Below, piece by piece: positions 1 to 36,096 of a DNA stretch of 64,000 nucleotides (within the stretch, counting starts at the first letter, position 1; each line of letters starts with the position of its first letter). Origin of the DNA: Dudresnaya verticillata (taxonomy: Eukaryota); assembly GCA_977862235.1 (NCBI GenBank), contig OZ374565.1, positions 2,542,001 to 2,606,000 on the forward strand, written 5' to 3'. A program made the translations under genes and the position numbers. The notes under the pieces are model-generated. The model made no database searches and had not been told where the DNA came from. It saw only the letters and a list, made by a program, of their open reading frames with translations.

Positions 1-911
1 GGGGTTGTTTAGGGTTAGGTCTAGGGTTAGTTTGGTTACTGTGGTACGCGAGGGGCATGATATTGGGAGGGTAAAGGGTCTAGTGTTGGTGCATGGAATG
101 AATCATGGTGGTGGAAGGAATGGATCAGTGTGGTGGATGAATTGGATTTAGGGACATAGAATTGGATTAGATTTAGTACCCAGAAGATTGGATCAAGGAT
201 CACCACAATCGGATCAAGTCTGGTGGCTGGGGTGAGGGTGGCTTGGACGTTTGTGCTCATAACTTTGGAACGGCTGGGGCTAGGGAGCTGCTCAGTAGCT
301 GAATCGAAGCGTCTCGTTGCTGCGCATTGCGTAGCGCTCTTACCCTCCTAAATCGACTTTTTGGCGCGTTTCTATGGTGCAAAACGTCCCCACGGGCCGT
401 CGGCAGCTTTTGAGCAGATCAAATAGGGGTTTGGGGCATGTATGGTTATGGGTGGGTTTAGGGGTGTTAGGGATGTGTCATTTTAACGCGTTTAGGAGTG
501 TAGGGAGTGGGAATGAAAGTAGTAAGGATGAGGAAATGGAAAGGGAAGGATGAGAAAGTATAGTACAATGCAGTAATACAAATCACGGAATGCATCAGGT
601 TGGGATCCAATAAGGGTGGATGGATTGGATCAACGGAAGTCAAGGCGTTATAGGATTGGATCTAGGGGCTCTGTAAATTAGATTGGGTGCTGGTTTCATT
701 GAACCAAGGGGTCAGAACGTCCATGAGCTGGTTGACTGTATTTATATTGAATCCTGCGTTTAGAGTAAATGGTATACGGTTATGGGTCATTACTTTAATG
801 CTCCACGTGTACACTACAGTCGGATGGACATTGGACGCAGGAGTCTTTAGTCGATGACGGGGAGTGCAGTTGATGGCGCATTTAAATAGGGGTACGGCGG
901 GAACAGCAAGC
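1..911. repeat. 5S rDNA intergenic spacer (partial copy of the ~1.09 kb spacer)
   Basis: Near-identical sequence recurs at 5679-6767, 20895-21983, 52436-53524 and 60550-61614, always directly upstream of a 5S 5' segment; G-rich + strand. Confidence 0.9.
881..888 (+). promoter_or_regulatory. TATA-like element (TTTAAATA) at -31..-24 of the 5S gene
   Basis: AT-rich octamer in GC-rich context at the position typical for TBP/TFIIIB contact upstream of 5S genes; present before all five 5S copies. Confidence 0.6.
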
Positions 912-1000
912 ACATTCGGCCATACTACGCAGACATGCTCCGTATCCCATCCCGAACTGCGAAGATAAGTCTCGTCAGGCTGGTTTAGTACTGAGGTGAG
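912..1000 (+). rRNA. 5S rRNA: 5S rRNA gene 1, 5' segment (nt 1-89), interrupted by retrotransposon
   Basis: ACATTCGGCCATAC…CCATCCCGAAC…AAGATAAG…TAGTACT motifs; joined to the 3' segment it gives ~120 nt whose ends ACATTCGGC/GCCGAATGT form a perfect 9-bp helix I. Confidence 0.93.
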
Positions 1001-1100
1001 TTCAACTTTATAACAGGTGATCATATTCTAATATTTGTCGACGTACAATCTACTGTAGTATCACAACAAAGTTAAACCCCAACTCAAACAACTTGCACAT

Positions 1101-4100
1101 CTACACCTCCTGTTGGATCCCTTCCATCAGGCACTTGACGTTGTTCTGCACCAGTCGCGCCGCGTGCCTGTGGAACAGAGCCGCTCGCGAAACACCGCGA
1201 GTTACCATGGCCCGAGAAGCCACGGTATCCGCCAACTCTTGCATATACTTGTGCGCCTCCGGGTGCCAGCCACCTAGTGTGGTCATCGGCACCGGCACAA
1301 GCCTTGCCCCCGGTCCGGCAGCCTGGATGAAGCCACGGTAAGTCCGCACCTTGTCAGCGTGGGCGTTCTTCAGCGTCCCTTGCGGGTTTGTTATGCAGCT
1401 GAGAATGCGTTGTTCTGACGACAGTGGATGACTGATTGTGACGTCCAGGTAGTCCGTTCCTCCTTCTGTTCCAAGCGCCTTGATGTCCGGCCGATCCAGG
1501 TGAGCCCCCACAGGGCGGGGCTCCACAATCGGGGTGCGTGTCGCACGTTTCAGATCCGAAGCCAGCAGACGAACCTGAGAGTCGTGGCGCCACGACCGAG
1601 GAGATCCGCTGTTCCGCATGCCGTTCGGACAAATCAGCAGATGGTCGCCGTGAACATCCATCATCTTCTTGCACCCGGCCCGAGGACACTCCGTGTCGGG
1701 TTCCAGCAGTGGAATCCGACAGTAGAATCGAAGCCATACGCGGTAGTCCCGATCCGCAATGTACGTCTTCATGCCTGGTGCCGGCTGGCACTTGAGCCAG
1801 TCCTTGGCGCCCGGCGCGCCAAGGGAAGCTCGGAAAGCTTGCGTCCGCCTGTCCCCGAGCGGCAGCTCGGCTTGCACTTTCTTCAGTACCAACCGCGTCA
1901 AGTCCCTCTGGCGTGGGCACTCGTCGCTGTCGATCTTCTCCAGGTCCAGAGCATCCTCACTATGGCACTTGGCGCTCCAGTCTTCGTGCGCTTCTACTGC
2001 AAAAGGATCGTCAGAAAGAGCAGTGTTCACAGAAGCGGGTAAGATAGAACGCAGTAAGTTGCGGGTCAGTGAAAGGGACGCCAGAAACGCGCTCGAGTTC
2101 ATGTCGCCAGCTCCCGAAATACCGATTCCGAAGCTGGGCTCTTTCGTGCGCAGGGGAAGCTGAAGTTCGCGGAAGGTGTCCCTCGGTAGGACTCCTCCCA
2201 CGAGCTTGCGCATGCAAACCTCAATCTTCTGGTCGAAGAGCTCGGCGCCCTTCGCCGTGGCGGATGATGGAACTACTCGCAGCAGGTAGTTCAGCCGGCA
2301 GACTCCGGCACAGTTGCGGAGTAGAGTGATGGCCACGTGTAGGTCTTCTAGTCCCGAAATTGCGTCCAGCAGGGGCTGGATGGACTCGACATGGCCATTC
2401 ACGCTCTCCTCCATGTAGTTCTGCGTTCCAATCGGAGCCTGAAGTACTGTAGTGCCTTCTCCGTAGCTCTGCCCAAGATCCGACGGGTAGGCAGCGCAGT
2501 CTTCTGGGTCGGGTGCAGTAGGCCACCAAACAGTACACTTGTCCATGCGCAGGTGGAAGCCATAGCCCTTAGCTTCCTCGGAGTCAAAGAAGGACAGAAC
2601 CTTCCTGAGTACGGCGTGTTTCGCCATGATGACGCCGTCGTCCAGGTAGAACAGTGACAGCAGCAAGTTGTTCGCCCCCTCCGCTTGCTGATTGCGGCCC
2701 GAGCGCCACAGGTCGGCGGTGAGTTCCTTCAACTGTTTGATCAGTGCCTGCAGCACCAAAGCAAACAGTAACGGCCCGAGCGGGTCACCTTGCTGTACAC
2801 CAGTGACACTCCGCAGTAGAGTGTCACCCATCCACAGGTGCGGGCCCTCAGAGTCATAACAGTATGTGACCCACGGTAGTAGTTCAGGCATATGTCGGCG
2901 GACCTCCTTTATGAATGCTTTGCGGCTGACAAGGTTGAAGGCATTCTTCAAGTCCACTTGTAGCAACCCGTAGGACTTGTCATGGCCGTGAGACTTCTGC
3001 AGCTTCCGGACCGCGTGTACAATCGCTTCTGTGCCGCCCGAGGTTGCGACCCCGAGCTGAAGCGGTTCGAGGTATGCCTTGGCCGTGGGAGCGACTCTGG
3101 TCATGAGCATAGAGCTCACGAGTCGTCGGATTGTCTCTCCTACAGCAATGGGGCGGACACCGCCGGTGCGCTTCTTCAGAGCCGTGAGAGGAGCGCTGGC
3201 AATCCAAGGCGACAGCTCCGCAGGTCCTGCGCCGCTGGCCAGCACGTTGACCATTTTGGTGAGCCCGCCAAGCAGGCCCGTGTGCTCGTGAGTGGTCGGG
3301 ACTGAGAGCAGTTCCTGCAGATGCGTCGGTGATAGTCCTGTGCCCCCCGAGGCCGAAGCCCGGGGGAACTTGGCCACTGCTTTTCGTACTTCGTCGGCTG
3401 TGAAAGGCACGAAGTCAGGGATGGTCGGCAGCGGTTCGGACTGGTCAAGCTCGTGGTCCGCGTCGGTTTGCGGTACGGACTGCGGGTGCTTGTCCTTCAT
3501 GGACTGTATCACCGAGTCTGTGGCTGGCGCGATTCCATCAGAGTCTAGAGCTGCTGCTGCCTTACTGTAGGCGCCCTCCTTTGCAAGGCGAAGGGCTCGT
3601 GAGGCATTGATACGGCGTTGCTCTTCTGCGGAAGGCGCAGTCTGCTCACGGAATGTCGAGCCTTTCAAGGCCTCCTGCCATAGGGCGTCGTAATCCTTGA
3701 GTCCCCAGCGTCGGATTCGATCGCGGAAGGTGCCGATCGAGGACGCAGAGGTTGACGCGCTGGCCCTTGCACTCGCCGCGGGAGGATTGGACAAGACGGC
3801 TGCTGGAAAGAGCAGGAATGCAGTGAGCTCTTTGGTGGCTTCCTGAGAGTTGGTTGCGTTCGTAAAAGCCCATACCGTCTTGGACAGTGCGTCGCGCACC
3901 TCGGCGCGGACGCGAGACGGTATATGTGTGACCATAGGGATATGCGAGCGACAGATATCTTCGACCGGCGGCAGAAGCTGCCCTCCTGGACCCCGCGCAA
4001 CGGGTGGGGTTTGCGCAGTTGGTACCTCTCGAGTAGCAGGTACCGGTGCAGGAGGCGGCTCCTGGCTGTCCGGGATTCGTCGCGGGGCTGGCAGGATATC

Positions 4101-4589
4101 GTCCGCTGGCTCGCCGTCCTCGGGTTGCGTCTCCGTGACCGCGACCAGAGCAGGAGTCTGTGATGGCGCGGCTACAGTTTCTTCACGGCTCGGTGTCGTC
4201 AATTGGTTGGACGGGACGTGGGAGAACGCCGGAGTGCGAGTGGCGGGACATGCGCTGCAATTCTTGTACCGCATACTGTACATGCCTTCACTGTTCATGC
4301 GGGAGCTACAGTGCGTAGGCATGTACTTGTTGTGAGTCACACAGTACCATACTCCATAGTCCAGGAGCTGCTGCTTGAGAGGCTCGATGTCGGTCCTCGT
4401 CGGTGGTCCTCGCCTGCCAGGAACATGCATCTTCCGCAGGTGCATGAGTAGCGCTTCTACAGTAGGCAGTGAGGACGACTGGCAGCCCAGAGGACAGCTG
4501 GTACTGTTTGTCGGGCGGTGTTTTGCCGAAGGCATAAAGCATGGAGAGAGCCATACCTTCGGCATGTCGGGGTGCTGCTGACCAATCAT
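1101..4589 (-). CDS. Non-LTR retrotransposon protein, 1162 aa: C2H2 zinc finger, reverse transcriptase, CCHC motif, restriction-like endonuclease (CRE-clade-like)
   Basis: CPLGC-x13-H-x4-H; RT motifs GVRPIAVGE, QLGV, QVDLKNAFN, GVQQGDPLGPLLF, YLDDG; CPRAGC-x9-H-x3-C followed by RHD, RPDI, DVTI. Confidence 0.95.
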   Translation of the reverse strand: MIGQQHPDMPKVWLSPCFMPSAKHRPTNSTSCPLGCQSSSLPTVEALLMHLRKMHVPGRRGPPTRTDIEPLKQQLLDYGVWYCVTHNKYMPTHCSSRMNSEGMYSMRYKNCSACPATRTPAFSHVPSNQLTTPSREETVAAPSQTPALVAVTETQPEDGEPADDILPAPRRIPDSQEPPPAPVPATREVPTAQTPPVARGPGGQLLPPVEDICRSHIPMVTHIPSRVRAEVRDALSKTVWAFTNATNSQEATKELTAFLLFPAAVLSNPPAASARASASTSASSIGTFRDRIRRWGLKDYDALWQEALKGSTFREQTAPSAEEQRRINASRALRLAKEGAYSKAAAALDSDGIAPATDSVIQSMKDKHPQSVPQTDADHELDQSEPLPTIPDFVPFTADEVRKAVAKFPRASASGGTGLSPTHLQELLSVPTTHEHTGLLGGLTKMVNVLASGAGPAELSPWIASAPLTALKKRTGGVRPIAVGETIRRLVSSMLMTRVAPTAKAYLEPLQLGVATSGGTEAIVHAVRKLQKSHGHDKSYGLLQVDLKNAFNLVSRKAFIKEVRRHMPELLPWVTYCYDSEGPHLWMGDTLLRSVTGVQQGDPLGPLLFALVLQALIKQLKELTADLWRSGRNQQAEGANNLLLSLFYLDDGVIMAKHAVLRKVLSFFDSEEAKGYGFHLRMDKCTVWWPTAPDPEDCAAYPSDLGQSYGEGTTVLQAPIGTQNYMEESVNGHVESIQPLLDAISGLEDLHVAITLLRNCAGVCRLNYLLRVVPSSATAKGAELFDQKIEVCMRKLVGGVLPRDTFRELQLPLRTKEPSFGIGISGAGDMNSSAFLASLSLTRNLLRSILPASVNTALSDDPFAVEAHEDWSAKCHSEDALDLEKIDSDECPRQRDLTRLVLKKVQAELPLGDRRTQAFRASLGAPGAKDWLKCQPAPGMKTYIADRDYRVWLRFYCRIPLLEPDTECPRAGCKKMMDVHGDHLLICPNGMRNSGSPRSWRHDSQVRLLASDLKRATRTPIVEPRPVGAHLDRPDIKALGTEGGTDYLDVTISHPLSSEQRILSCITNPQGTLKNAHADKVRTYRGFIQAAGPGARLVPVPMTTLGGWHPEAHKYMQELADTVASRAMVTRGVSRAALFHRHAARLVQNNVKCLMEGIQQEV

Positions 4590-5329
4590 GGTTACAGCGC
4601 TGGGTAAGGTACCTGTAAAGGTCCTCTACAGTAGGTTCCCACGGGGCACAGACCTCCTAACCGGGACGCAAGCCTGTCGTCCGTCGTCAGTCTGTTCGGG
4701 ACACCTCCAGAGGGTGCTACAGGTGGCCTTGCTGCGAGATGAAGGCCTCTTCGCAGCGTAGGGCGCGAGATCGCGCACTTTGCGCACGAGCTCGCGCAAA
4801 AGGGCGCGCGTGTTAGCGTTCGTGCGCGTAGACTTATCGGACGTTCCCTTCCCTGCCGCAGCTGAGAAGACTCTCTTCACTGCGGTCCTGTAACGCGCGG
4901 TACTTCTCGTTTGCACAAGCTCTCAATGGGGTCGCAGAACCACCGTTTACCTGTGAGTGCCCGCAGGATTTTTGGCCTCCCCCGAAGGTTCGCTGGCAGG
5001 ACGTTCGCTCGATCTTAGAAGGGGTGGTTTCAAAACAGGATCCACCAGGCTTAAGCCACGTTACCCCAACTTCGACGTTGCTTGGCACGTTTCTGCGATG
5101 AGCTTGTGGGTCACGAGCCGCCTACCACTCAAGGTCGAGGGTCTTTGGCGATTCCCACACTTGTAGGTCTCTCGGCACTTCCCGAAGGAAGATTTTACAG
5201 GACAAGCCTGGCCTTTACCAATCTGTCAGTTGAAGGGTGTGAAACCCCTCTGTCGACAGTCCACGGCAGCCTAGACAGAGTCTAGGCTGTGCCGGGTACA
5301 AGCAAAACGCGTACAGGGCCAGGGAAAGA

Positions 5330-5372
5330 AAGATAAGTCAGTGGGGCCCGGGCAAATTTCAAGGTGAGGGAT
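5330..5372 (+). promoter_or_regulatory. 5S internal-control-region mimic in the element 5' UTR (copy 1)
   Basis: AAGATAAGTC + 22 nt + AGGTGAGGGAT, same motifs and spacing as host 5S (962-971, then 994 onward); copy 1 reads GGGATAAC, the others GGGATCAC. Confidence 0.6.
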
Positions 5373-5413
5373 AACCTTAAAAGTAAGCGCAAAATAGGAA
5401 ACGCGTGACCGTC

Positions 5414-5452
5414 GGCGACGACGGCGGCGGCGACGGCGGCGACGACGACGGC
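5414..5452 (+). repeat. GGC/GAC trinucleotide tract in the CpG-rich 5' UTR of the element
   Basis: ggcgacgacggcggcggcgacggcggcgacgacgacggc; present in every copy that retains its 5' UTR. Confidence 0.85.
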
Positions 5453-5650
5453 GTCGCGGCGCAGATCGGCGGCGCGGAAAGAGACAAAAGTAGACCGCGC
5501 TCGCCCGCCCGCGAAGGTGAAGGGCTGAAAAACCCCGCACCGACGCGCCGTCGCGCGCTCGAACAGGCGGCACCGCCGCCGAAAAGATCGGTGCAGAACT
5601 TGTTGAGATATCCGCGAAACAAAAATTTCGGCAGATCGCTGAGGGAGTAC

Positions 5651-5678
5651 TCACTCTGGAATCGCCAGTGCCGAATGT
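5651..5678 (+). rRNA. 5S rRNA: 5S rRNA gene 1, 3' segment (first 3 nt replaced by junction filler)
   Basis: TCACTCTGGAATCGCCAGTGCCGAATGT pairs with the 5' segment (helices I, IV, V). Confidence 0.88.
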
Positions 5679-5690
5679 TTTTATTTTTTT
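5678..5690 (+). terminator. RNA polymerase III oligo(T) terminator of the 5S gene
   Basis: TTTTTATTTTTTT directly after the 5S 3' end; same at 20894-20906 and 52435-52447. Confidence 0.85.
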
Positions 5691-6767
5691 GCACCTCATT
5701 CCTTCCTCCCCGCCGCCCTCTGCGTACATTGCTGCCTTGCATACCTCTCCCACAGAATCCCCGACCCACTGCCTCTGTACAGCGTATTCTTTTCACTCGC
5801 ACTTTTCCCCTTTTCTTGTAAGTGGGAGGGAGTCTGAGAGTGTTTGCAGGTGTCTAGGGGTTGTTTAGGGTTAGGTCTAGGGTTAGTTTGGTTACTGTGG
5901 TACGCGAGGGGCATGATATTGGGAGGGTAAAGGGTCTAGTGTTGGTGCATGGAATGAATCATGGTGGTGGAAGGAATGGATCAGTGTGGTGGATGAATTG
6001 GATTTAGGGACATAGAATTGGATTAGATTTAGTACCCAGAAGATTGGATCAAGGATCACCACAATCGGATCAAGTCTGGTGGCTGGGGTGAGGGTGGCTT
6101 GGACGTTTGTGCTCATAACTTTGGAACGGCTGGGGCTAGGGAGCTGCTCAGTAGCTGAATCGAAGCGTCTCGTTGCTGCGCATTGCGTAGCGCTCTTACC
6201 CTCCTAAATCGACTTTTTGGCGCGTTTCTATGGTGCAAAACGTCCCCACGGGCCGTCGGCAGCTTTTGAGCAGATCAAATAGGGGTTTGGGGCATGTATG
6301 GTTATGGGTGGGTTTAGGGGTGTTAGGGATGTGTCATTTTAACGCGTTTAGGAGTGTAGGGAGTGGGAATGAAAGTAGTAAGGATGAGGAAATGGAAAGG
6401 GAAGGATGAGAAAGTATAGTACAATGCAGTAATACAAATCACGGAATGCATCAGGTTGGGATCCAATAAGGGTGGATGGATTGGATCAACGGAAGTCAAG
6501 GCGTTATAGGATTGGATCTAGGGGCTCTGTAAATTAGATTGGGTGCTGGTTTCATTGAACCAAGGGGTCAGAACGTCCATGAGCTGGTTGACTGTATTTA
6601 TATTGAATCCTGCGTTTAGAGTAAATGGTATACGGTTATGGGTCATTACTTTAATGCTCCACGTGTACACTACAGTCGGATGGACATTGGACGCAGGAGT
6701 CTTTAGTCGATGACGGGGAGTGCAGTTGATGGCGCATTTAAATAGGGGTACGGCGGGAACAGCAAGC
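5679..6767. repeat. 5S rDNA intergenic spacer
   Basis: Matches the other spacer copies. Confidence 0.9.
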
Positions 6768-6856: not shown

Positions 6857-6957
6857 TTCAACTTTATAACAGGTGACCATATTCTAATATTTGTCGACGT
6901 ACAATCTACTGTAGTATCACAACAAAGTTAAACCCCAACTCAAAACAACCTGCACAT

Positions 6958-9900
6958 CTACACCTCCTGTTGGATCCCTTCCATCAGGCACTTGACGTTG
7001 TTCTGCACCAGTCGCGCCGCGTGCCTGTGGAACAGAGCCGCTCGCGAAACACCGCGAGTTACCATGGCCCGAGAAGCCACGGTATCCGCCAACTCTTGCA
7101 TATACTTGTGCGCCTCCGGGTGCCAGCCACCTAGTGTGGTCATCGGCACCGGCACAAGCCTTGCCCCCGGTCCGGCAGCCTGGATGAAGCCACGGTAAGT
7201 CCGCACCTTGTCAGCGTGGGCGTTCTTCAGCGTCCCTTGCGGGTTTGTTATGCAGCTGAGAATGCGTTGTTCTGACGACAGTGGATGACTGATTGTGACG
7301 TCCAGGTAGTCCGTTCCTCCTTCTGTTCCAAGCGCCTTGATGTCCGGCCGATCCAAGTGAGCCCCCACAGGGCGGGGCTCCACAATCGGGGTGCGTGTCG
7401 CACGTTTCAGATCCGAAGCCAGCAGACGAACCTGAGAGTCGTGGCGCCACGACCGAGGAGATCCGCTGTTCCGCATGCCGTTCGGACAAATCAGCAGATG
7501 GTCGCCGTGAACATCCATCATCTTCTTGCACCCGGCCCGAGGACACTCCGTGTCGGGTTCCAGCAGTGGAATCCGACAGTAGAATCGAAGCCATACGCGG
7601 TAGTCCCGATCCGCAATGTACGTCTTCATGCCTGGTGCCGGCTGGCACTTGAGCCAGTCCTTGGCGCCCGGCACGCCAAGGGAAGCTCGGAAAGCTTGCG
7701 TCCGCCTGTCCCCGAGCGGCAGCTCGGCTTGCACTTTCTTCAGAACCAACCGCGTCAAGTCCCGCTGGCGCGGGCACTCGTCGCTGTCGATCTTCTCCAG
7801 GTCCAGGGCATCCTCACTATGGCACTTGGCGCTCCAGTCTTCGTGCGCTTCTACTGCAAAAGGATCGTCAGAAAGAGCAGTGTTCACAGAAGCGGGTAAG
7901 ATAGAACGCAGTAAGTTGCGGGTCAGTGAAAGGGACGCCAAAAACGCGCTCGAGTTCATGTCGCCAGCTCCCGAAATACCGATTCCGAAGCTGGGCTCTT
8001 TCGTGCGCAGGGGAAGCTGAAGTTCGCGGAAGGTGTCCCTCGGTAGGACTCCTCCCACGAGCTTGCGCATGCAAGCCTCAATCTTCTGGTCGAAGAGCTC
8101 GGCGCCCTTTGCCGTGGCGGATGATGGAACTACTCGCAGCAGGTAGTTCAGCCGGCAGACTCCGGCACAGTTGCGGAGTAGAGTGATGGCCACGTGTAGG
8201 TCTTCTAGTCCCGAAATTGCGTCCAGCAGGGGCTGGATGGACTCGACATGGCCATTCACGCTCTCCTCCATGTAGTTCTGCGTTCCAATCGGAGCCTGAA
8301 GTACTGTAGTGCCTTCTCCGTAGCTCTGCCCAAGATCCGACGGGTAGGCAGCGCAGTCTTCTGGGTCGGGTGCAGTAGGCCACCAAACAGTACACTTGTC
8401 CATGCGCAGGTGGAAGCCATAGCCCTTAGCTTCCTCGGAGTCAAAGAAGGACAGAACCTTCCTGAGTACGGCGTGTTTCGCCACGATGACGCCGTCGTCC
8501 AGGTAGAACAGTGACAGCAGCAAGTTGTTCGCCCCCTCCGCTTGCTGATTGCGGCCCGAGCGCCGCAGGTCGGCGGTGAGTTCCTTCAACTGTTTGATCA
8601 GTGCCTGCAGCACCAAAGCAAACAGTAACGGCCCGAGCGGGTCACCTTGCTGTACACCAGTGACACTCCGCAGTAGAGTGTCACCCATCCACAGGTGCGG
8701 GCCCTCAGAGTCATAACAGTATCTGACCCACGGTAGTAGTTCAGGCATATGTCGGCGGACCTCCTTCATGAATGCTTTGCGGCTGACAAGGTTGAAGGCA
8801 TTCTTCAAGTCCACTTGTAGCAACCCGTAGGACTTGTCATGGCCGTGAGACTTCTGCAGCTTCCGGACCGCGTGTACAATGGCTTCTGTGCCGCCCGAGG
8901 TTGCGACCCCGAGCTGAAGCGGTTCGAGGTATGCCTTGGCCTTGGGAGCGACTCTGGTCATGAGCATAGAGCTCACGAGTCGTCGGATTGTCTCTCCTAC
9001 AGCAATGGGGCGGACACCGCCGGTGCGCTTCTTCAGAGCCGTGAGAGGAGCGCTGGCAATCCAAGGCGACAGCTCCGCAGGTCCTGCGCCGCTGGCCAGC
9101 ACGTTGACCATTTTGGTGAGCCCGCCAAGCAGGCCCGTGTGCTCGTGAGTGGTCGGGACTGAGAGCAGTTCCTGCAGATGCGTCGGTGATAGTCCTGTTC
9201 CCCCCGAGGCCGAAGCCCGGGGGAACTTGGCCACTGCTTTTCGTACTTCGTCGGCTGTGAAAGGCACGAAGTCAGGCATGGTCGGCAGCGGTTCGGACTG
9301 GTCAAGCTCGTGGTCCGCGTCGGTTTGCGGTACGGACTGCGGGTGCTTGTCCTTCATGGACTGTATCACAGAGTCTGTGGCTGGGGCGATTCCATCAGAG
9401 TCTAGAGCTGCTGCTGCCTTACTGTAGGCGCCCTCCTTTGCAAGGCGAAGGGCTCGTGAGGCATTGATACGGCGTTGCTCTTCTGCGGAAGGCGCAGTCT
9501 GCTCACGGAATGTCGAGCCCTTCAAGGCCTCCTGCCATAGGGCGTCGTAATCCTTGAGTCCCCAGCGTCGGATTCGATCGCGGAAGGTGCCGATCGAGGA
9601 CGCAGAGGTTGACGCGCTGGCCCTTGCACTCGCGGCGGGAGGATTGGACAAGACGGCTGCTGGAAAAAGCAGGAATGCAGTGAGCTCTTTGGTGGCTTCC
9701 TGAGAGTTGGTTGTGTTCGTAAAAGCCCATACCGTCTTGGACAGTGCGTCGCGCACCTCGGCGCGGACGCGAGACGGTATATGTGTGACCATAGGGATAT
9801 GCGAGCGACAGATGTCTTCGACCGCCGGCAGAAGCTGCCCTCCTGGACCCCGCGCAACGGGTGGGGTTTGCGCAGTTGGTACCTCTCGAGTAGCAGGTAC

Positions 9901-10446
9901 CGGTGCAGGAGGCGGCTCCTGGCTGTCCGGGATTCGTCGCGGGGCTGGCAGGATATCGTCCGCTGGCTCGCCGTCCTCGGGTTGCGTCTCCGTGACCGCG
10001 TCCAGAGCAGGAGACTGTGATGGCGCGGCTACAGTTTCTTCACGGCTCGGTGTCGTCAATTGGTTGGACGGGACGTGGGAGAACGCCGGAGTGCGAGTAG
10101 CGGGACATGCGCTGCAATTCTTGTACCGCATACTGTACATGCCTTCACTGTTCATGCGGGAGCTACAGTGGGTGGGCATGTACTTGTTGTGAGTCACACA
10201 GTACCATACTCCATAGTCCAGGAGCTGCTGCTTGAGAGGCTCGATGTCGGTCCTCGTCGGTGGTCCTCGCCTGCCAGGAACATGCATCTTCCGCAGGTGC
10301 ATGAGTAGCGCTTCTACAGTAGGCAGTGAGGACGACTGGCAGCCCAGAGGACAGCTGGTACTGTTTGTCGGGCGGTGTTTTGCCGAAGGCATAAAGCATG
10401 GAGAGAGCCATACCTTCGGCATGTCGGGGTGCTGCTGACCAATCAT
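6958..10446 (-). CDS. RT-RLE retrotransposon protein, 1162 aa (copy 2)
   Basis: Same motifs as copy 1. Confidence 0.95.
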   Translation of the reverse strand: MIGQQHPDMPKVWLSPCFMPSAKHRPTNSTSCPLGCQSSSLPTVEALLMHLRKMHVPGRRGPPTRTDIEPLKQQLLDYGVWYCVTHNKYMPTHCSSRMNSEGMYSMRYKNCSACPATRTPAFSHVPSNQLTTPSREETVAAPSQSPALDAVTETQPEDGEPADDILPAPRRIPDSQEPPPAPVPATREVPTAQTPPVARGPGGQLLPAVEDICRSHIPMVTHIPSRVRAEVRDALSKTVWAFTNTTNSQEATKELTAFLLFPAAVLSNPPAASARASASTSASSIGTFRDRIRRWGLKDYDALWQEALKGSTFREQTAPSAEEQRRINASRALRLAKEGAYSKAAAALDSDGIAPATDSVIQSMKDKHPQSVPQTDADHELDQSEPLPTMPDFVPFTADEVRKAVAKFPRASASGGTGLSPTHLQELLSVPTTHEHTGLLGGLTKMVNVLASGAGPAELSPWIASAPLTALKKRTGGVRPIAVGETIRRLVSSMLMTRVAPKAKAYLEPLQLGVATSGGTEAIVHAVRKLQKSHGHDKSYGLLQVDLKNAFNLVSRKAFMKEVRRHMPELLPWVRYCYDSEGPHLWMGDTLLRSVTGVQQGDPLGPLLFALVLQALIKQLKELTADLRRSGRNQQAEGANNLLLSLFYLDDGVIVAKHAVLRKVLSFFDSEEAKGYGFHLRMDKCTVWWPTAPDPEDCAAYPSDLGQSYGEGTTVLQAPIGTQNYMEESVNGHVESIQPLLDAISGLEDLHVAITLLRNCAGVCRLNYLLRVVPSSATAKGAELFDQKIEACMRKLVGGVLPRDTFRELQLPLRTKEPSFGIGISGAGDMNSSAFLASLSLTRNLLRSILPASVNTALSDDPFAVEAHEDWSAKCHSEDALDLEKIDSDECPRQRDLTRLVLKKVQAELPLGDRRTQAFRASLGVPGAKDWLKCQPAPGMKTYIADRDYRVWLRFYCRIPLLEPDTECPRAGCKKMMDVHGDHLLICPNGMRNSGSPRSWRHDSQVRLLASDLKRATRTPIVEPRPVGAHLDRPDIKALGTEGGTDYLDVTISHPLSSEQRILSCITNPQGTLKNAHADKVRTYRGFIQAAGPGARLVPVPMTTLGGWHPEAHKYMQELADTVASRAMVTRGVSRAALFHRHAARLVQNNVKCLMEGIQQEV

Positions 10447-11186
10447 GGTTACAGCGCTGGGTAAGGTACCTGTAAAGGTCCTCTACAGTAGGTTCCCACG
10501 GGGCACAGGCCTCCTAACCGGGACGCAAGCCTGTCGTCCGTCGTCAGTCTGTTCGGGACACCTCCAGAGGGTGCTACAGGTGGCCTTGCTGCGAGATGAG
10601 GGCCTCTTCGCAGCGTAGGGCGCGAGATCGCGCACTTTGCGCACGAGCTCGCGCAAAAGGGCGCGCGTGTTAGCGTTCGTGCGCGCAGAGTTATCGGACG
10701 TTCCCTTCCCTGCCGCAGCTGAGAAGACTCTCTTCACTGCGGTCCTGTAACGCGCGGTACTTCTCGTTTGCACAAGCTCTCAATGGGGTCGCAGAACCAC
10801 CGTTTACCTGTGAGTGCCCACAGGATTTTTGGCCTCCCCCGAAGGTTCGCTGGCAGGACGTTCGCTCGATCTTAGAAGGGGTGGTTTCAAAACAGGATCC
10901 ACCAGGCTTAAGCCACGTTACCCCAACTTCGACGTTGCTTGGCACGTTTCTGCGATGAGCTTGTGGGTCACGAGCCGCCTACCACTCAAGGTCGAGGGTC
11001 TTTGGCGATTCCCACACTTGTAGGTCTCTCGGCACTTCCCGAAGGAAGATTTTACAGGACAAGCCTGGCCTTTACCAATCTGTCAGTTGAAGGGTGTGAA
11101 ACCCCTCTGTCGACAGTCCACGGCAGCCTAGACAGAGTCTAGGCTGTGCCGGGTACAAGCAAAACGCGTACAGGGCCAGGGAAAGA

Positions 11187-11232
11187 AAGATAAGTCAGTG
11201 GGGCCCGGGCAAATTTCAAGGTGAGGGATCAC
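11187..11232 (+). promoter_or_regulatory. 5S internal-control-region mimic in the element 5' UTR (copy 2, consensus form)
   Basis: AAGATAAGTC-N22-AGGTGAGGGATCAC; 10/10 and 14/14 identity to the reconstructed host 5S gene at identical spacing. Confidence 0.65.
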
Positions 11233-11543
11233 CTTAAAAGTAAGCGCAAAATAGGAAACGCGTGACCGTCGGCGACGACGGCGGCGGCGACGGCGGCGAC
11301 GACGACGGCGTCGCGGCGCAGATCGGCGGCGCGGAAAGAGACAAAAGTAGACCGCGCTCGCCCGCCCGCGAAGGTGAAGGGCTGAAAAACCCCGCACCGA
11401 CGCGCCGTCGCGCGCTCGAACAGGCGGCACCGCCGCCGAAAAGATCGGTGCAGAACTTGCTGAGAAATCTCCGAAACAAAAAATTCGGCAGATCGCGAGG
11501 GGTTCTCCAGTCTCAGTCTGAGGTGAGGGAGTACTCAGGTGAG

Positions 11544-14500
11544 TTCAACTTTATAACAGGTGATCATATTCTAATATTTGTCGACGTACAATCTACTGTA
11601 GTATCACAACAAAGTTAAACCCCAACTCAAACAACTTGCACATCTACACCTCCTGTTGGATCCCTTCCATCAGGCACTTGACGTTGTTCTGCACCAGTCG
11701 CGCCGCGTGCCTGTGGAACAGAGCCGCTCGCGAAACACCGCGAGTTACCATGGCCCGAGAAGCCACGGTATCCGCCAACTCTTGCATATACTTGTGCGCC
11801 TCCGGGTGCCAGCCACCTAGTGTGGTCATCGGCACCGGCACAAGCCTTGCCCCCGGTCCGGCAGCCTGGATGAAGCCACGGTAAGTCCGCACCTTGTCAG
11901 CGTGGGCGTTCTTCAGCGTCCCTTGCGGGTTTGTTATGCAGCTGAGAATGCGTTGTTCTGACGACAGTGGATGACTGATTGTGACGTCCAGGTAGTCCGT
12001 TCCTCCTTCTGTTCCAAGCGCCTTGATGTCCGGCCGATCCAGGTGAGCCCCCACAGGGCGGGGCTCCACAATCGGGGTGCGTGTCGCACGTTTCAGATCC
12101 GAAGCCAGCAGACGAACCTGAGAGTCGTGGCGCCACGACCGAGGAGATCCGCTGTTCCGCATGCCGTTCGGACAAATCAGCAGATGGTCGCCGTGAACAT
12201 CCATCATCTTCTTGCACCCGGCCCGAGGACACTCCGTGTCGGGTTCCAGCAGTGGAATCCGACAGTAGAATCGAAGCCATACGCGGTAGTCCCGATCCGC
12301 AATGTACGTCTTCATGCCTGGTGCCGGCTGGCACTTGAGCCAGTCCTTGGCGCCCGGCGCGCCAAGGGAAGCTCGGAAAGCTTGCGTCCGCCTGTCCCCG
12401 AGCGGCAGCTCGGCTTGCACTTTCTTCAGTACCAACCGCGTCAAGTCCCTCTGGCGTGGGCACTCGTCGCTGTCGATCTTCTCCAGGTCCAGAGCATCCT
12501 CACTATGGCACTTGGCGCTCCAGTCTTCGTGCGCTTCTACTGCAAAAGGATCGTCAGAAAGAGCAGTGTTCACAGAAGCGGGTAAGATAGAACGCAGTAA
12601 GTTGCGGGTCAGTGAAAGGGACGCCAGAAACGCGCTCGAGTTCATGTCGCCAGCTCCCGAAATACCGATTCCGAAGCTGGGCTCTTTCGTGCGCAGGGGA
12701 AGCTGAAGTTCGCGGAAGGTGTCCCTCGGTAGGACTCCTCCCACGAGCTTGCGCATGCAAACCTCAATCTTCTGGTCGAAGAGCTCGGCGCCCTTCGCCG
12801 TGGCGGATGATGGAACTACTCGCAGCAGGTAGTTCAGCCGGCAGACTCCGGCACAGTTGCGGAGTAGAGTGATGGCCACGTGTAGGTCTTCTAGTCCCGA
12901 AATTGCGTCCAGCAGGGGCTGGATGGACTCGACATGGCCATTCACGCTCTCCTCCATGTAGTTCTGCGTTCCAATCGGAGCCTGAAGTACTGTAGTGCCT
13001 TCTCCGTAGCTCTGCCCAAGATCCGACGGGTAGGCAGCGCAGTCTTCTGGGTCGGGTGCAGTAGGCCACCAAACAGTACACTTGTCCATGCGCAGGTGGA
13101 AGCCATAGCCCTTAGCTTCCTCGGAGTCAAAGAAGGACAGAACCTTCCTGAGTACGGCGTGTTTCGCCATGATGACGCCGTCGTCCAGGTAGAACAGTGA
13201 CAGCAGCAAGTTGTTCGCCCCCTCCGCTTGCTGATTGCGGCCCGAGCGCCACAGGTCGGCGGTGAGTTCCTTCAACTGTTTGATCAGTGCCTGCAGCACC
13301 AAAGCAAACAGTAACGGCCCGAGCGGGTCACCTTGCTGTACACCAGTGACACTCCGCAGTAGAGTGTCACCCATCCACAGGTGCGGGCCCTCAGAGTCAT
13401 AACAGTATGTGACCCACGGTAGTAGTTCAGGCATATGTCGGCGGACCTCCTTTATGAATGCTTTGCGGCTGACAAGGTTGAAGGCATTCTTCAAGTCCAC
13501 TTGTAGCAACCCGTAGGACTTGTCATGGCCGTGAGACTTCTGCAGCTTCCGGACCGCGTGTACAATCGCTTCTGTGCCGCCCGAGGTTGCGACCCCGAGC
13601 TGAAGCGGTTCGAGGTATGCCTTGGCCGTGGGAGCGACTCTGGTCATGAGCATAGAGCTCACGAGTCGTCGGATTGTCTCTCCTACAGCAATGGGGCGGA
13701 CACCGCCGGTGCGCTTCTTCAGAGCCGTGAGAGGAGCGCTGGCAATCCAAGGCGACAGCTCCGCAGGTCCTGCGCCGCTGGCCAGCACGTTGACCATTTT
13801 GGTGAGCCCGCCAAGCAGGCCCGTGTGCTCGTGAGTGGTCGGGACTGAGAGCAGTTCCTGCAGATGCGTCGGTGATAGTCCTGTTCCCCCCGAGGCCGAA
13901 GCCCGGGGGAACTTGGCCACTGCTTTTCGTACTTCGTCGGCTGTGAAAGGCACGAAGTCAGGGATGGTCGGCAGCGGTTCGGACTGGTCAAGCTCGTGGT
14001 CCGCGTCGGTTTGCGGTACGGACTGCGGGTGCTTGTCCTTCATGGACTGTATCACCGAGTCTGTGGCTGGCGCGATTCCATCAGAGTCTAGAGCTGCTGC
14101 TGCCTTACTGTAGGCGCCCTCCTTTGCAAGGCGAAGGGCTCGTGAGGCATTGATACGGCGTTGCTCTTCTGCGGAAGGCGCAGTCTGCTCACGGAATGTC
14201 GAGCCTTTCAAGGCCTGCTGCCATAGGGCGTCGTAATCCTTGAGTCCCCAGCGTCGGATTCGATCGCGGAAGGTGCCGATCGAGGACGCAGAGGTTGACG
14301 CGCTGGCCCTTGCACTCGCCGCGGGAGGATTGGACAAGACGGCTGCTGGAAAGAGCAGGAATGCAGTGAGCTCTTTGGTGGCTTCCTGAGAGTTGGTTGC
14401 GTTCGTAAAAGCCCATACCGTCTTGGACAGTGCGTCGCGCACCTCGGCGCGGACGCGAGACGGTATATGTGTGACCATAGGGATATGCGAGCGACAGATA

Positions 14501-16182
14501 TCTTCGACCGGCGGCAGAAGCTGCCCTCCTGGACCCCGCGCAACGGGTGGGGTTTGCGCAGTTGGTACCTCTCGAGTAGCAGGTACCGGTGCAGGAGGCG
14601 GCTCCTGGCTGTCCGGGATTCGTCGCGGGGCTGGCAGGATATCGTCCGCTGGCTCGCCGTCCTCGGGTTGCGTCTCCGTGACCGCGACCAGAGCAGGAGT
14701 CTGTGATGGCGCGGCTACAGTTTCTTCACGGCTCGGTGTCGTCAATTGGTTGGACGGGACGTGGGAGAACGCCGGAGTGCGAGTGGCGGGACATGCGCTG
14801 CAATTCTTGTACCGCATACTGTACATGCCTTCACTGTTCATGCGGGAGCTACAGTGCGTAGGCATGTACTTGTTGTGAGTCACACAGTACCATACTCCAT
14901 AGTCCAGGAGCTGCTGCTTGAGAGACTCGATGTCGGTCCTCGTCGGTGGTCCTCGCCTGCCAGGAACATGCATCTTCCGCAGGTGCATGAGTAGCGCTTC
15001 TACAGTAGGCAGTGAGGACGACTGGCAGCCCAGAGGACAGCTGGTACTGTTTGTCGGGCGGTGTTTTGCCAAAGGCATAAAGCATGGAGAGAGCCATACC
15101 TTCGGCATGTCGGGGTGCTGCTGACCAATCATGGTTACAGCGCTGGGTAAGGTACCTGTAAAGGTCCTCTACAGTAGGTTCCCACGGGGCACAGACCTCC
15201 TAACCGGGACGCAAGCCTGTCGTCCGTCGTCAGTCTGTTCGGGACACCTCCAGAGGGTGCTACAGGTGGCCTTGCTGCGAGATGAAGGCCTCTTCGCAGC
15301 GTAGGGCGCGAGATCGCGCAATTTGCGCACGAGCTCGCGCAAAAGGGCGCGCGTGTTAGCGTTCGTGCGCGTAGACTTATCGGACGTTCCCTTCCCTGCC
15401 GCAGCTGAGAAGACTCTCTTCACTGCGGTCCTGTAACGCGCGGTACTTCTCGTTTGCACAAGCTCTCAATGGGGTCGCAGAACCACCGTTTACCTGTGAG
15501 TGCCCGCAGGATTTTTGGCCTCCCCCGAAGGTTCGCTGGCAGGACGTTCGCTCGATCTTAGAAGGGGTGGTTTCAAAACAGGATCCACCAGGCTTAAGCC
15601 ACGTTACCCCAACTTCGACGTTGCTTGGCACGTTTCTGCGATGAGCTTGTGGGTCACGAGCCGCCTACCACTCAAGGTCGAGGGTCTTTGGCGATTCCCA
15701 CACTTGTAGGTCTCTCGGCACTTCCCGAAGGAAGATTTTACAGGACAAGCCTGGCCTTTACCAATCTGTCAGTTGAAGGGTGTGAAACCCCTCTGTCGAC
15801 AGTCCACGGCAGCCTAGACAGAGTCTAGGCTGTGCCGGGTACAAGCAAAACGCGTACAGGGCCAGGGAAAGAAAGACAAGTCAGTGGGGCCCGGGCAAAT
15901 TTCAAGGTGAGGGATCACCTTAAAAGTAAGCGCAAAATAGGAAACGCGTGACCGTCGGCGACGACGGCGGCGGCGACGGCGGCGACGACGACGGCGTCGC
16001 GGCGCAGATCGGCGGCGCGGAAAGAGACAAAAGTAGACCGCGCTCGCCCGCCCGCGAAGGTGAAGGGCTGAAAAACCCCGCACCGACGCGCCGTCGCGCG
16101 CTCGAACAGGCGGCACCGCCGCCGAAAAGATCGGTGCAGAACTTGTTGAGATATCCGCGAAACAAAAATTTCGGCAGATCGC
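11544..16182 (-). mobile_element. Retrotransposon copy 3 (full length, subtype A)
   Basis: Head-to-tail with copies 2 and 4, separated by target-derived sequence. Confidence 0.95.
11644..15132 (-). CDS. RT-RLE retrotransposon protein, 1162 aa (copy 3)
   Basis: Same motifs as copy 1. Confidence 0.95.
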   Translation of the reverse strand: MIGQQHPDMPKVWLSPCFMPLAKHRPTNSTSCPLGCQSSSLPTVEALLMHLRKMHVPGRRGPPTRTDIESLKQQLLDYGVWYCVTHNKYMPTHCSSRMNSEGMYSMRYKNCSACPATRTPAFSHVPSNQLTTPSREETVAAPSQTPALVAVTETQPEDGEPADDILPAPRRIPDSQEPPPAPVPATREVPTAQTPPVARGPGGQLLPPVEDICRSHIPMVTHIPSRVRAEVRDALSKTVWAFTNATNSQEATKELTAFLLFPAAVLSNPPAASARASASTSASSIGTFRDRIRRWGLKDYDALWQQALKGSTFREQTAPSAEEQRRINASRALRLAKEGAYSKAAAALDSDGIAPATDSVIQSMKDKHPQSVPQTDADHELDQSEPLPTIPDFVPFTADEVRKAVAKFPRASASGGTGLSPTHLQELLSVPTTHEHTGLLGGLTKMVNVLASGAGPAELSPWIASAPLTALKKRTGGVRPIAVGETIRRLVSSMLMTRVAPTAKAYLEPLQLGVATSGGTEAIVHAVRKLQKSHGHDKSYGLLQVDLKNAFNLVSRKAFIKEVRRHMPELLPWVTYCYDSEGPHLWMGDTLLRSVTGVQQGDPLGPLLFALVLQALIKQLKELTADLWRSGRNQQAEGANNLLLSLFYLDDGVIMAKHAVLRKVLSFFDSEEAKGYGFHLRMDKCTVWWPTAPDPEDCAAYPSDLGQSYGEGTTVLQAPIGTQNYMEESVNGHVESIQPLLDAISGLEDLHVAITLLRNCAGVCRLNYLLRVVPSSATAKGAELFDQKIEVCMRKLVGGVLPRDTFRELQLPLRTKEPSFGIGISGAGDMNSSAFLASLSLTRNLLRSILPASVNTALSDDPFAVEAHEDWSAKCHSEDALDLEKIDSDECPRQRDLTRLVLKKVQAELPLGDRRTQAFRASLGAPGAKDWLKCQPAPGMKTYIADRDYRVWLRFYCRIPLLEPDTECPRAGCKKMMDVHGDHLLICPNGMRNSGSPRSWRHDSQVRLLASDLKRATRTPIVEPRPVGAHLDRPDIKALGTEGGTDYLDVTISHPLSSEQRILSCITNPQGTLKNAHADKVRTYRGFIQAAGPGARLVPVPMTTLGGWHPEAHKYMQELADTVASRAMVTRGVSRAALFHRHAARLVQNNVKCLMEGIQQEV

Positions 16183-16197
16183 TCAGTCTGAGGTGAG

Positions 16198-19100
16198 TTC
16201 AACTTTATAACAGGTGACCATATTCTAATATTTGTCGACGTACAATCTACTGTAGTATCACAACAAAGTTAAACCCCAACTCAAAACAACCTGCACATCT
16301 ACACCTCCTGTTGGATCCCTTCCATCAGGCACTTGACGTTGTTCTGCACCAGTCGCGCCGCGTGCCTGTGGAACAGAGCCGCTCGCGAAACACCGCGAGT
16401 TACCATGGCCCGAGAAGCCACGGTATCCGCCAACTCTTGCATATACTTGTGCGCCTCCGGGTGCCAGCCACCTAGTGTGGTCATCGGCACCGGCACAAGC
16501 CTTGCCCCCGGTCCGGCAGCCTGGATGAAGCCACGGTAAGTCCGCACCTTGTCAGCGTGGGCGTTCTTCAGCGTCCCTTGCGGGTTTGTTATGCAGCTGA
16601 GAATGCGTTGTTCTGACGACAGTGGATGACTGATTGTGACGTCCAGGTAGTCCGTTCCTCCTTCTGTTCCAAGCGCCTTGATGTCCGGCCGATCCAAGTG
16701 AGCCCCCACAGGGCGGGGCTCCACAATCGGGGTGCGTGTCGCACGTTTCAGATCCGAAGCCAGCAGACGAACCTGAGAGTCGTGGCGCCACGACCGAGGA
16801 GATCCGCTGTTCCGCATGCCGTTCGGACAAATCAGCAGATGGTCGCCGTGAACATCCATCATCTTCTTGCACCCGGCCCGAGGACACTCCGTGTCGGGTT
16901 CCAGCAGTGGAATCCGACAGTAGAATCGAAGCCATACGCGGTAGTCCCGATCCGCAATGTACGTCTTCATGCCTGGTGCCGGCTGGCACTTGAGCCAGTC
17001 CTTGGCGCCCGGCACGCCAAGGGAAGCTCGGAAAGCTTGCGTCCGCCTGTCCCCGAGCGGCAGCTCGGCTTGCACTTTCTTCAGAACCAACCGCGTCAAG
17101 TCCCGCTGGCGCGGGCACTCGTCGCTGTCGATCTTCTCCAGGTCCAGGGCATCCTCACTATGGCACTTGGCGCTCCAGTCTTCGTGCGCTTCTACTGCAA
17201 AAGGATCGTCAGAAAGAGCAGTGTTCACAGAAGCGGGTAAGATAGAACGCAGTAAGTTGCGGGTCAGTGAAAGGGACGCCAAAAACGCGCTCGAGTTCAT
17301 GTCGCCAGCTCCCGAAATACCGATTCCGAAGCTGGGCTCTTTCGTGCGCAGGGGAAGCTGAAGTTCGCGGAAGGTGTCCCTCGGTAGGACTCCTCCCACG
17401 AGCTTGCGCATGCAAGCCTCAATCTTCTGGTCGAAGAGCTCGGCGCCCTTTGCCGTGGCGGATGATGGAACTACTCGCAGCAGGTAGTTCAGCCGGCAGA
17501 CTCCGGCACAGTTGCGGAGTAGAGTGATGGCCACGTGTAGGTCTTCTAGTCCCGAAATTGCGTCCAGCAGGGGCTGGATGGACTCGACATGGCCATTCAC
17601 GCTCTCCTCCATGTAGTTCTGCGTTCCAATCGGAGCCTGAAGTACTGTAGTGCCTTCTCCGTAGCTCTGCCCAAGATCCGACGGGTAGGCAGCGCAGTCT
17701 TCTGGGTCGGGTGCAGTAGGCCACCAAACAGTACACTTGTCCATGCGCAGGTGGAAGCCATAGCCCTTAGCTTCCTCGGAGTCAAAGAAGGACAGAACCT
17801 TCCTGAGTACGGCGTGTTTCGCCACGATGACGCCGTCGTCCAGGTAGAACAGTGACAGCAGCAAGTTGTTCGCCCCCTCCGCTTGCTGATTGCGGCCCGA
17901 GCGCCGCAGGTCGGCGGTGAGTTCCTTCAACTGTTTGATCAGTGCCTGCAGCACCAAAGCAAACAGTAACGGCCCGAGCGGGTCACCTTGCTGTACACCA
18001 GTGACACTCCGCAGTAGAGTGTCACCCATCCACAGGTGCGGGCCCTCAGAGTCATAACAGTATCTGACCCACGGTAGTAGTTCAGGCATATGTCGGCGGA
18101 CCTCCTTCATGAATGCTTTGCGGCTGACAAGGTTGAAGGCATTCTTCAAGTCCACTTGTAGCAACCCGTAGGACTTGTCATGGCCGTGAGACTTCTGCAG
18201 CTTCCGGACCGCGTGTACAATGGCTTCTGTGCCGCCCGAGGTTGCGACCCCGAGCTGAAGCGGTTCGAGGTATGCCTTGGCCTTGGGAGCGACTCTGGTC
18301 ATGAGCATAGAGCTCACGAGTCGTCGGATTGTCTCTCCTACAGCAATGGGGCGGACACCGCCGGTGCGCTTCTTCAGAGCCGTGAGAGGAGCGCTGGCAA
18401 TCCAAGGCGACAGCTCCGCAGGTCCTGCGCCGCTGGCCAGCACGTTGACCATTTTGGTGAGCCCGCCAAGCAGGCCCGTGTGCTCGTGAGTGGTCGGGAC
18501 TGAGAGCAGTTCCTGCAGATGGGTCGGTGATAGTCCTGTTCCCCCCGAGGCCGAAGCCCGGGGGAACTTGGCCACTGCTTTTCGTACTTCGTCGGCTGTG
18601 AAAGGCACGAAGTCAGGCATGGTCGGCAGCGGTTCGGACTGGTCAAGCTCGTGGTCCGCGTCGGTTTGCAGTACGGACTGCGGGTGCTTGTCCTTCATGG
18701 ACTGTATCACAGAGTCTGTGGCTGGGGCGATTCCATCAGAGTCTAGAGCTGCTGCTGCCTTACTGTAGGCGCCCTCCTTTGCAAGGCGAAGGGCTCGTGA
18801 GGCATTGATACGGCGTTGCTCTTCTGCGGAAGGCGCAGTCTGCTCACGGAATGTCGAGCCCTTCAAGGCCTCCTGCCATAGGGCGTCGTAATCCTTGAGT
18901 CCCCAGCGTCGGATTCGATCGCGGAAGGTGCCGATCGAGGACGCAGAGGTTGACGCGCTGGCCCTTGCACTCGCGGCGGGAGGATTGGACAAGACGGCTG
19001 CTGGAAAAAGCAGGAATGCAGTGAGCTCTTTGGTGGCTTCCTGAGAGTTGGTTGCGTTCGTAAAAGCCCATACCGTCTTGGACAGTGCGTCGCGCACCTC

Positions 19101-20837: not shown

Positions 20838-20863
20838 TGAGGGAGTACTCAGTCTGAGGTGAG

Positions 20864-20894
20864 GGATCACTCTGGAATCGCCAGTGCCGAATGT
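20864..20894 (+). rRNA. 5S rRNA: 5S rRNA gene 2, 3' segment (nt 90-120)
   Basis: GGATCACTCTGGAATCGCCAGTGCCGAATGT followed by oligo(T). Confidence 0.92.
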
Positions 20895-26724: not shown

Positions 26725-26756
26725 GGGTACTGAGGTGAGGACTGAGGTCAGGTGAG

Positions 26757-31408: not shown

Positions 31409-31440
31409 GGGTACTGAGGTGAGGACTGAGGTCAGGTGAG

Positions 31441-36080: not shown

Positions 36081-36096
36081 TGAGTACTGAGGTGAG

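Follow-up and report, generated by a model that had tools for sequence, protein, structure and literature searches.

What has interrupted the 5S ribosomal RNA (rRNA) genes in a 64,000-nucleotide stretch of Dudresnaya verticillata DNA (contig OZ374565.1, positions 2,542,001 to 2,606,000; hereafter the window), and does the shared position of the interruptions reflect targeting or common descent? The window is a 5S rDNA array with a unit of 1,209 bp (a 120-nt gene and a 1,089-bp spacer), and one family of 4.64-kb retrotransposons without long terminal repeats (non-LTR) occupies 90.5% of it. Our reading, to which we assign a probability of roughly 85%, is that the family is a retrotransposon with just one open reading frame (ORF) and a restriction-like endonuclease (RLE), which lies antisense at one base of the 5S gene and likely reached that base through repeated target-primed reverse transcription.

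Each of the window's 14 element 3' ends (1001, 6857, 11544, 16198, 22073, 26757, 31441, 36097, 40756, 45421, 50070, 53614, 56909 and 61704) is directly preceded by AGGTGAG, a heptamer found just 3 times in one 5.86-kb unit, and these 7 nt are the single stretch that is invariant over all junctions. Five of the ends come after 5S nt 1-89 and nine after another element and a short linker; the elements are antisense to the gene and the junction lies after 5S nt 89. The motif at every 3' end and the single antisense site between nt 89 and 90 had both been proposed in the initial annotation and are borne out by the 14 junctions, while the tandem stacking, which reaches seven copies, had not been described there. 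The five genes in view carry 1, 3, 7, 2 and at least 1 copies, so that all are interrupted, and no intact 5S gene was seen within the window. The array is laid out as follows.

881..888, plus strand: TATA-like box TTTAAATA at -31 to -24 from the 5S start (from the sequence; presumed function)
912..1000, plus strand: 5S rRNA gene nt 1-89 (RF00001)
6768-6856, 21984-22072, 53525-53613 and 61615-61703, plus strand: 5S nt 1-89 parts of identical sequence
5639..5650, no strand: 5' junction linker of the first copy, made of target-derived pieces, without the duplicated target and without 5S nt 90-92
5651..5690, plus strand: 5S nt 93-120 and oligo(T) terminator
5679..6767, plus strand: 5S spacer, 1089 bp, identical across the three complete copies compared
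6857..20863, minus strand: stack of three full-length copies in one 5S gene, with a 10-nt target duplication at its end
20864..20894, plus strand: complete 5S nt 90-120 (second complete part at 52405-52435)
22073..52404, minus strand: stack of seven copies in one 5S gene, six full-length and one of 2.3 kb (50070-52392)
53614..60549, minus strand: stack of two copies in one 5S gene, one with a 1.36-kb internal deletion, the other with an intact ORF and with its 5' untranslated region (UTR), junction and 5S 3' part deleted
61704..64000, minus strand: copy interrupted by the window end

Rfam model RF00001 matches at 912, 6768, 21984, 53525 and 61615 at 51.8-54.3 bits, where the gathering threshold is 38, scores which are computed with element sequence standing in for the 3' part of the 5S; these full-length matches were rejected as intact genes, being chimeras of 5S nt 1-89 and the element 3' end, and no other Rfam family was found in the window at E<=1. 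When 21984-22072 is joined to 20864-20894 a sequence of 120 nt results, in which helix I is fully paired (9 of 9, as compared with 2 of 9 for the unjoined chimera) and the helix IV strands GUGA and UCAC pair 4 of 4 round a GGGA loop, the global minimum free energy z-score of the rejoined RNA being modest (-1.5). The cut site falls after the first base of loop D (box C). The earlier proposal that removal of the elements restores a 5S fold, with a TATA-like box upstream and an oligo(T) terminator (here T5-A-T7), is thus upheld. Contigs of DNA reads (run X1) from other, related uninterrupted 5S genes continue beyond this base, and the 9 letters that follow are the same; on sequence comparison these confirm the register, not an empty allele in this species, and the joint of an empty allele was not found in the one DNA sequencing run (share 0.07). 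The 5S sequence presumably resembles that of red algae. Short G-rich repeats, degenerate TTAGGG-like ones among them, occur on the plus strand of every 5S spacer, for instance at 5853-5890.

The element protein and its relatives

The features of the element, given for the first copy, are these.

1001..1100, minus strand: 3' UTR, 100 nt, 33% GC, without poly(A), 3' end at 1001
1101..4589, minus strand: single ORF of 1162 aa (P0001; ORF list and translation)
1335..1688, minus strand: CCHC knuckle and RLE (motif spacing, alignment with the R2 C-terminus; kept in A1)
2526..3176, minus strand: reverse transcriptase (RT) PF00078, aa 472-688, YLDD at 648 (E 6e-17)
4230..4517, minus strand: N-terminal module, aa 25-120, C2H2-like finger and second Cys/His cluster (presumptive role)
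4590..5638, minus strand: 5' UTR, 1049 nt, fixed 5' end, terminal hairpin
5330..5375, plus strand: copy of the 5S internal promoter boxes (nt 51-60, GG at 71-72, nt 83-96) in exact register

With RT, CCHC knuckle and PD-(D/E)xK nuclease in one ORF, the element is an RLE-type non-LTR retrotransposon. The nuclease region contains C968..C987, R1001-H-D, E1023, R1033-P-D, D1049 and K1080, with a catalytic spacing of RHD-X19-E-X9-RPD-X13-D and a CCHC spacing of 4/9/3/13; the RLE residues align with those of R2 and show no variation among the intact ORFs (11 of 11). In a search of the PDB with a 16-sequence profile the R2 proteins were the best matches, with a second weak domain across the nuclease, and the top seven structure matches of the AlphaFold model (pLDDT, the predicted local distance difference test, 81) are all R2 (E 6e-23, 15-17% identity). 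The RLE type and the compact 1162-aa ORF, both claimed beforehand, therefore stand, the former on the RT match, the R2 alignment and the R2-closest fold. A Pfam scan of the ORF at E<=1 returned nothing but RVT_1, without an N-terminal apurinic/apyrimidinic endonuclease (APE) domain, and the two element ends are unlike each other, with no LTRs. An antisense 204-aa ORF, and 152/158-aa ORFs that span the 5' junction in 2 copies only, were set aside as shadows.

The N-terminal module is predicted from its sequence to be the DNA-binding part. Of 202 other proteins collected, 7 share it at E<=1e-4; it had no match among 9 candidates, and a model of aa 1-125 (pLDDT 65) gave no fold match at E<=0.001 (best Z 3.1). 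In R2 the N-terminus bears a zinc finger plus a Myb domain.

Nineteen relatives stand at 36-57% identity, beyond which identity falls to about 31%; a profile search retrieved 3,591 proteins at E<=1e-30. In a midpoint-rooted FastTree tree of the RT core, for which 62 of 121 proteins were kept (coverage of at least 330 aa, together with a rank within the first 50 or a source name), P0001 and 18 of these relatives form a clade with support 1.0. The lone labelled member of this 19-protein clade is IDg10506t1, an identifier format used for the red alga Calliarthron tuberculosum (PMC3734836), and on this ground the host is likely a florideophyte red alga. The relatives further off belong to sponge, plants and dinoflagellates. 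A CRE-like placement is plausible; the tree contains only unnamed, plant, sponge and dinoflagellate relatives.

Two proteins of the same clade, P0005 and P0124, have an Ulp1 protease (PF02902) between the N-terminal module and the RT, a domain known in RLE elements of the NeSL/Utopia type, and P0124, a protein of 2541 aa, carries two copies of the N-terminal module. Judged by eye, positions 3120-3720 of the relative's locus L002 resemble the Ulp1 stretch, and at 407-510 of the same locus, some 2 kb upstream from its decayed element copy, lies a weak minus-strand tRNA match, apparently an intron-containing tRNA-Leu. Run X1 also contains a related element, seen as 30-letter loose ends of the 3' region (at 1123 and 22196-22198, depth 10-29), with a similar ORF end and a different 3' UTR. 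No relatives were found among viral contigs. CRE-like eukaryotic retrotransposon ORFs occur on 23 contigs of prokaryotic metagenome-assembled genomes (L081-L103), which is likely binning contamination.

Insertion at a single base

The 5' end of the element is constant to within one base, in two sequence variants that both have the terminal hairpin. The 5' linkers are mostly target pieces from both strands and 10 of 11 are distinct, the identical pair being that at 26712/31396. At nine element-element junctions 7-14 nt of the target before the cut are duplicated; where an element meets a 5S 3' part the duplication measures 10 nt, in two cases out of three. These duplications are absent from the initial annotation, which was given for the copy at 912..5690; at its 5' junction that copy lacks both the duplication and 5S nt 90-92. 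Because the linkers differ and 7-14 nt of target are duplicated, repeated target-primed insertion is likely, together with some later duplication and microhomology deletions; to judge from the identical linker pair and from an ORF pair whose ratio of non-synonymous to synonymous change (pN/pS) is 1.0, part of the array arose by duplication.

Ten aligned full-length copies differ in up to 52 of 4,645 columns (about 1%), and the 11 intact ORFs encode 8 distinct proteins. Their variable codons comprise 32 synonymous and 23 non-synonymous changes against 876 and 2,610 sites, respectively (p 2e-7), and pN/pS is 0.16-0.22 in six of seven ORF pairs, the value of 1.0 belonging to a near-identical pair with 4 changes. 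The ORFs are under purifying selection, and the element would on this sequence evidence be young and apparently active.

We propose that the element protein binds the internal promoter region of the 5S gene and, as in R2 biology, would nick the sense strand after nt 89, the element RNA then being copied from the 3'-OH of nt 89 without a poly(A). A second nick 7-14 nt off would cause that much target to be duplicated. Because the duplication together with 5S nt 90-120 would remake a usable site at the new 5' junction, further copies could stack in a gene already dead, and unequal exchange would afterwards duplicate certain units. We lean slightly towards stacking at the 5' rather than the 3' junction, since R2 reads DNA on the 5'-junction side of its nick (PMC12203849), since the sole single-copy gene is the one whose 5' junction has lost the site, and since the 2.3-kb copy is flanked by an 18-nt repeat that contains the 5' end of the preceding copy.

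The better surviving alternative, which we nevertheless consider unlikely, is that the element prefers a short motif near AGGTGAG and that the 5S gene is one site among many genome-wide. It accords with the 7 nt that alone are invariant at all junctions, and with the 5S-free loci of the relatives described below. The element's own sequence, however, offers 5S nt 83-96 across the cut in the 5' UTR of 10 of 11 copies, and the 7-mer again at ORF position 1498, and neither was used by any of the 14 insertions; since these sites go unused, more than the core motif is needed. Highly improbable, and largely refuted already, is the view that the site is shared through common descent and not targeting, an old insertion or two having been multiplied within the 5S array through gene conversion and unequal crossing-over. 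For it the 100% identity of the three complete spacers, the identical linker pair, the 2-4 differences among four copies and the origin of all data from one locus could be cited. It does not account for head-to-tail copies at the same base with their own target-derived junctions, for two 5' end variants, or for copies that diverge by about 1% while purifying selection acts on them, a pattern that requires copying by means of the activity of the ORF itself.

Several points weigh against targeted insertion into 5S genes as we read it. The flanks of the relatives were collected for 103 loci and 80 were scanned with Rfam, which gave no 5S and one weak tRNA (L048); blastn and nhmmer searches of the first 80 loci with 5S parts gave only two 17-nt matches at E 0.34, and ARAGORN over 60 of the relatives' loci gave nothing. 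Most of the scanned relatives are distant and many are without a 3' flank; 40 of the 103 loci run at least 250 nt past the ORF end, and among these L002 and L030 are the only close relatives. At L002, a decayed copy with 39% identity and long flanks, no 5S lies alongside, and because this is a long-flanked close relative the 5S target may be particular to the present element family. Furthermore, the 7 invariant bases may belong to the RNA 3' end, the common 10-nt duplication could come from the donor RNA, and the 18-nt repeat round the 2.3-kb copy is equally explained by a later microhomology deletion like the others in the window. Finally, the evidence comes from one 64-kb window, part of which was itself duplicated, as the identical linker pair and the ORF pair with pN/pS 1.0 indicate.

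Four further observations concern the element ends. One 5' end variant (11484-11510, 26700-26726 and 45383-45410) bears a short extension whose complement lies some 30 nt further into the element, and resembles a snap-back product passed along in several copies. An AGGTGA motif like the target core lies in the 3' UTR at 1014-1024, 14-21 nt from the junction, and it was this stretch that cmscan aligned to the 5S 3' strand. A GC-rich triplet-like repeat tract occupies 5410-5456 in the 5' UTR. For an HDV-like (hepatitis delta virus-like) ribozyme there was no Rfam match, and a home-made descriptor, which was without positive-control validation, found none.

A copy of the 5S promoter boxes in the 5' UTR

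The promoter-box copy at 5330..5375, which the initial annotation does not contain, is antisense to the element and lies 309 nt inside its 5' end. It is present in 11 of 11 full 5' UTRs, perfect in nine and with one change each in the copies at 5330..5375 and 15873. It agrees with the 5S gene at 30 of 46 positions, with runs of 14 and 10 (7 of 200,000 permutations), and the agreement is 28 of 39 at box positions against 2 of 9 between boxes (p 0.009); the box limits used here are Xenopus coordinates, and the register is set by the matches themselves. Three exact 10-11 nt 5S matches occur in the 5' UTR (0 of 500 shuffles) and none in the ORF, 3' UTR or spacer; two 9-mers on one 5S diagonal were likewise found in 0 of 2,000 dinucleotide shuffles (37 for 7-mers) and not in the ORF or spacer. 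Since a gapped local alignment of the whole 5S gene with the 5' UTR is not significant (41 of 300 shuffles), the match is, as judged from the alignments, a two-patch motif and not a decayed whole gene. The copy covers the cut site and can form an 11-bp hairpin, longer than that of the 5S itself.

An ordinary sense promoter for RNA polymerase III (Pol III) would not be expected from this arrangement, because the boxes point away from the ORF; an antisense Pol III RNA would start near 5280, and the first T4 run comes 399 nt on from there. We regard the copy as a candidate platform for TFIIIA/TFIIIC and, by analogy with the 5S gene, would put this at about even odds: the bound factors would replace the promoter lost by insertion and keep the start region of the element open. 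Speaking against a promoter function are the two private mutations within the 24 nt that make up the copy, the use of Xenopus box limits with a register taken from the matches, and the 0 matches of the general box pattern in the 103 relatives' loci, of which few include the 5' UTR of a close relative.

A role of the motif as an operator or decoy that the element protein binds and does not cut, or as an RNA segment pairing with either the target or 5S rRNA, seems rather unlikely but has several points in its favour: the motif is symmetric over the cut (7 nt on each side) and is never inserted into, its hairpin exceeds that of the 5S, and a third exact 10-nt match, the reverse complement of 5S nt 100-109, stands on the other strand at 5146-5155, although this may be chance. 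R2 likewise reads two motifs at a fixed spacing (PMC12203849). Against such a role, the patch of nt 51-60 would lie on the primer side of the nick, whereas R2 reads the other side, and the retained bases begin at the start of the C-box motif and include the GG of the intermediate element (by the box positions used here). A comparison of the motif with the upstream motif of R2 was dropped, the second patch being on the wrong side of the nick. Distinctly less probable is a motif without function, left over from 5S DNA that an old 5' junction had captured, which would explain the orientation, would be in line with the linkers that often copy target pieces and with the two private mutations, but fits poorly with the placement of all 16 mismatches of the 46 nt between the two boxes without an indel (7 of 200,000 permutations).

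Known systems and meaning

The element resembles the CRE group (CRE1/2, SLACS, CZAR, MoTeR1, FoTeR, Cnl1) in its single ORF of about 1,160 aa with an N-terminal zinc finger, an RT and a C-terminal RLE, in its fixed site in a multicopy repeat with variable target duplications (PMC12278014, PMC12857005), and in its catalytic spacing (19, 9, 13), which fits that printed in PMC12857005. It differs in its CCHC spacing of 4/9/3/13, slightly outside the 1-3/7-8/3-4/9-10 published there, in targeting 5S instead of spliced-leader genes or telomeres, in having no poly(A), and in carrying 5S promoter boxes. Of the traits of trypanosomatid CRE elements, neither a spliced-leader family match at E<=1 nor a poly(A) was found in the window. 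R2 is the best match in fold and sequence among solved structures, also targets an rRNA gene and would by analogy use the same RLE chemistry. The present element, with 16-17% identity to R2, is distinguished by its 5S target, target duplications, deep tandem stacks, the absence of a detected HDV-like ribozyme and its antisense orientation, because of which it would not be co-transcribed with the 5S gene; no insertion at the conserved 28S site was present in the window.

Mutsu, a 5S-specific long interspersed nuclear element (LINE) of zebrafish, is likewise non-LTR and disrupts 5S genes at fixed sites, but it is about 5.5 kb long with two ORFs and a poly(A), goes by L1 names in Repbase and has its site about 20 nt from the 5S 5' end (PMC5340908), as against the one ORF, the RLE, the lack of poly(A) and the site at nt 89/90 described here. 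An APE nuclease is stated for the Tx1 clade in PMC4640811, where the RLE targets listed are U2, tRNA, 28S and microsatellites. 5S targeting thus arose in RLE elements independently of Mutsu, from which the present element differs in both site and host group. The nuclease of Mutsu itself we take to be of the APE type. Utopia, a NeSL-related RLE element, also resides in a small-RNA gene, is sometimes tandem and has family-dependent specificity (PMC4640811), its target being U2 small nuclear RNA and not 5S.

Cassandra retains the A-box, the intermediate element and the C-box with spacers free in sequence and fixed in length (PMC10853983), and a pattern of this type (by the box coordinates used here) is present in the 5' UTR of the element. 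However, Cassandra, Ajax and SINE3 are non-autonomous carriers whose promoter drives their own transcription, in Cassandra from the LTRs, whereas here the boxes are antisense to the ORF of an autonomous LINE. Dada-5S inserts in 5S genes (PMC8869645) but is a DNA transposon. Compared with these four, the element is alone in being an autonomous LINE that both targets 5S and carries the boxes.

In the literature searched, which excluded Fell et al. 2025 and Repbase, no 5S-specific RLE element was found, and to this extent the initial annotation's suggestion of an undescribed family stands. The survey of Fell et al. reportedly lists an RLE family tied to 5S and spliced-leader loci; this may reflect 5S/spliced-leader linkage and is the main risk to novelty, and there is an appreciable, if less than even, chance that some RLE family inserting into 5S has been recorded before. 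A 2024 review names Mutsu and Rex3 for 5S in its table, its authors stating that they are aware of no insertion within the 5S gene (PMC10946416). R2 and STITCHR are covered in PMC13580325, PMC13586686, PMC13708176 and PMC13188248, and tandem 5S arrays are described in Porphyra (PMC9940879; 10.64898/2026.05.14.725108). The class and the chemistry are known, then, while the target and the host group are new as far as searched, and the deep stacking at one base and the built-in boxes are unusual.

R2 is nearly the sole RLE system under development for RNA-templated gene insertion, and relatives with other targets are wanted in reviews (PMC13586686). A compact element that sits at one exact base in an array of Pol III genes and has a fixed 100-nt 3' UTR and no poly(A) suits in vitro study, and suits the question of how a CRE-like protein reads DNA; its use as an insertion tool is a possibility only. 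The boxes raise the testable question of how an antisense insert in a Pol III gene is expressed and how it coexists with TFIIIA. It is tempting to speculate, though only tentatively, that this is the first 5S-specific RLE lineage and the first site-specific LINE of red algae, one which would cut the TFIIIA-bound promoter, rebuild its own landing site, with copies piling up in dead genes as a result, and, as a TFIIIA/TFIIIC platform or an operator for its own protein, bring working promoter boxes with it.

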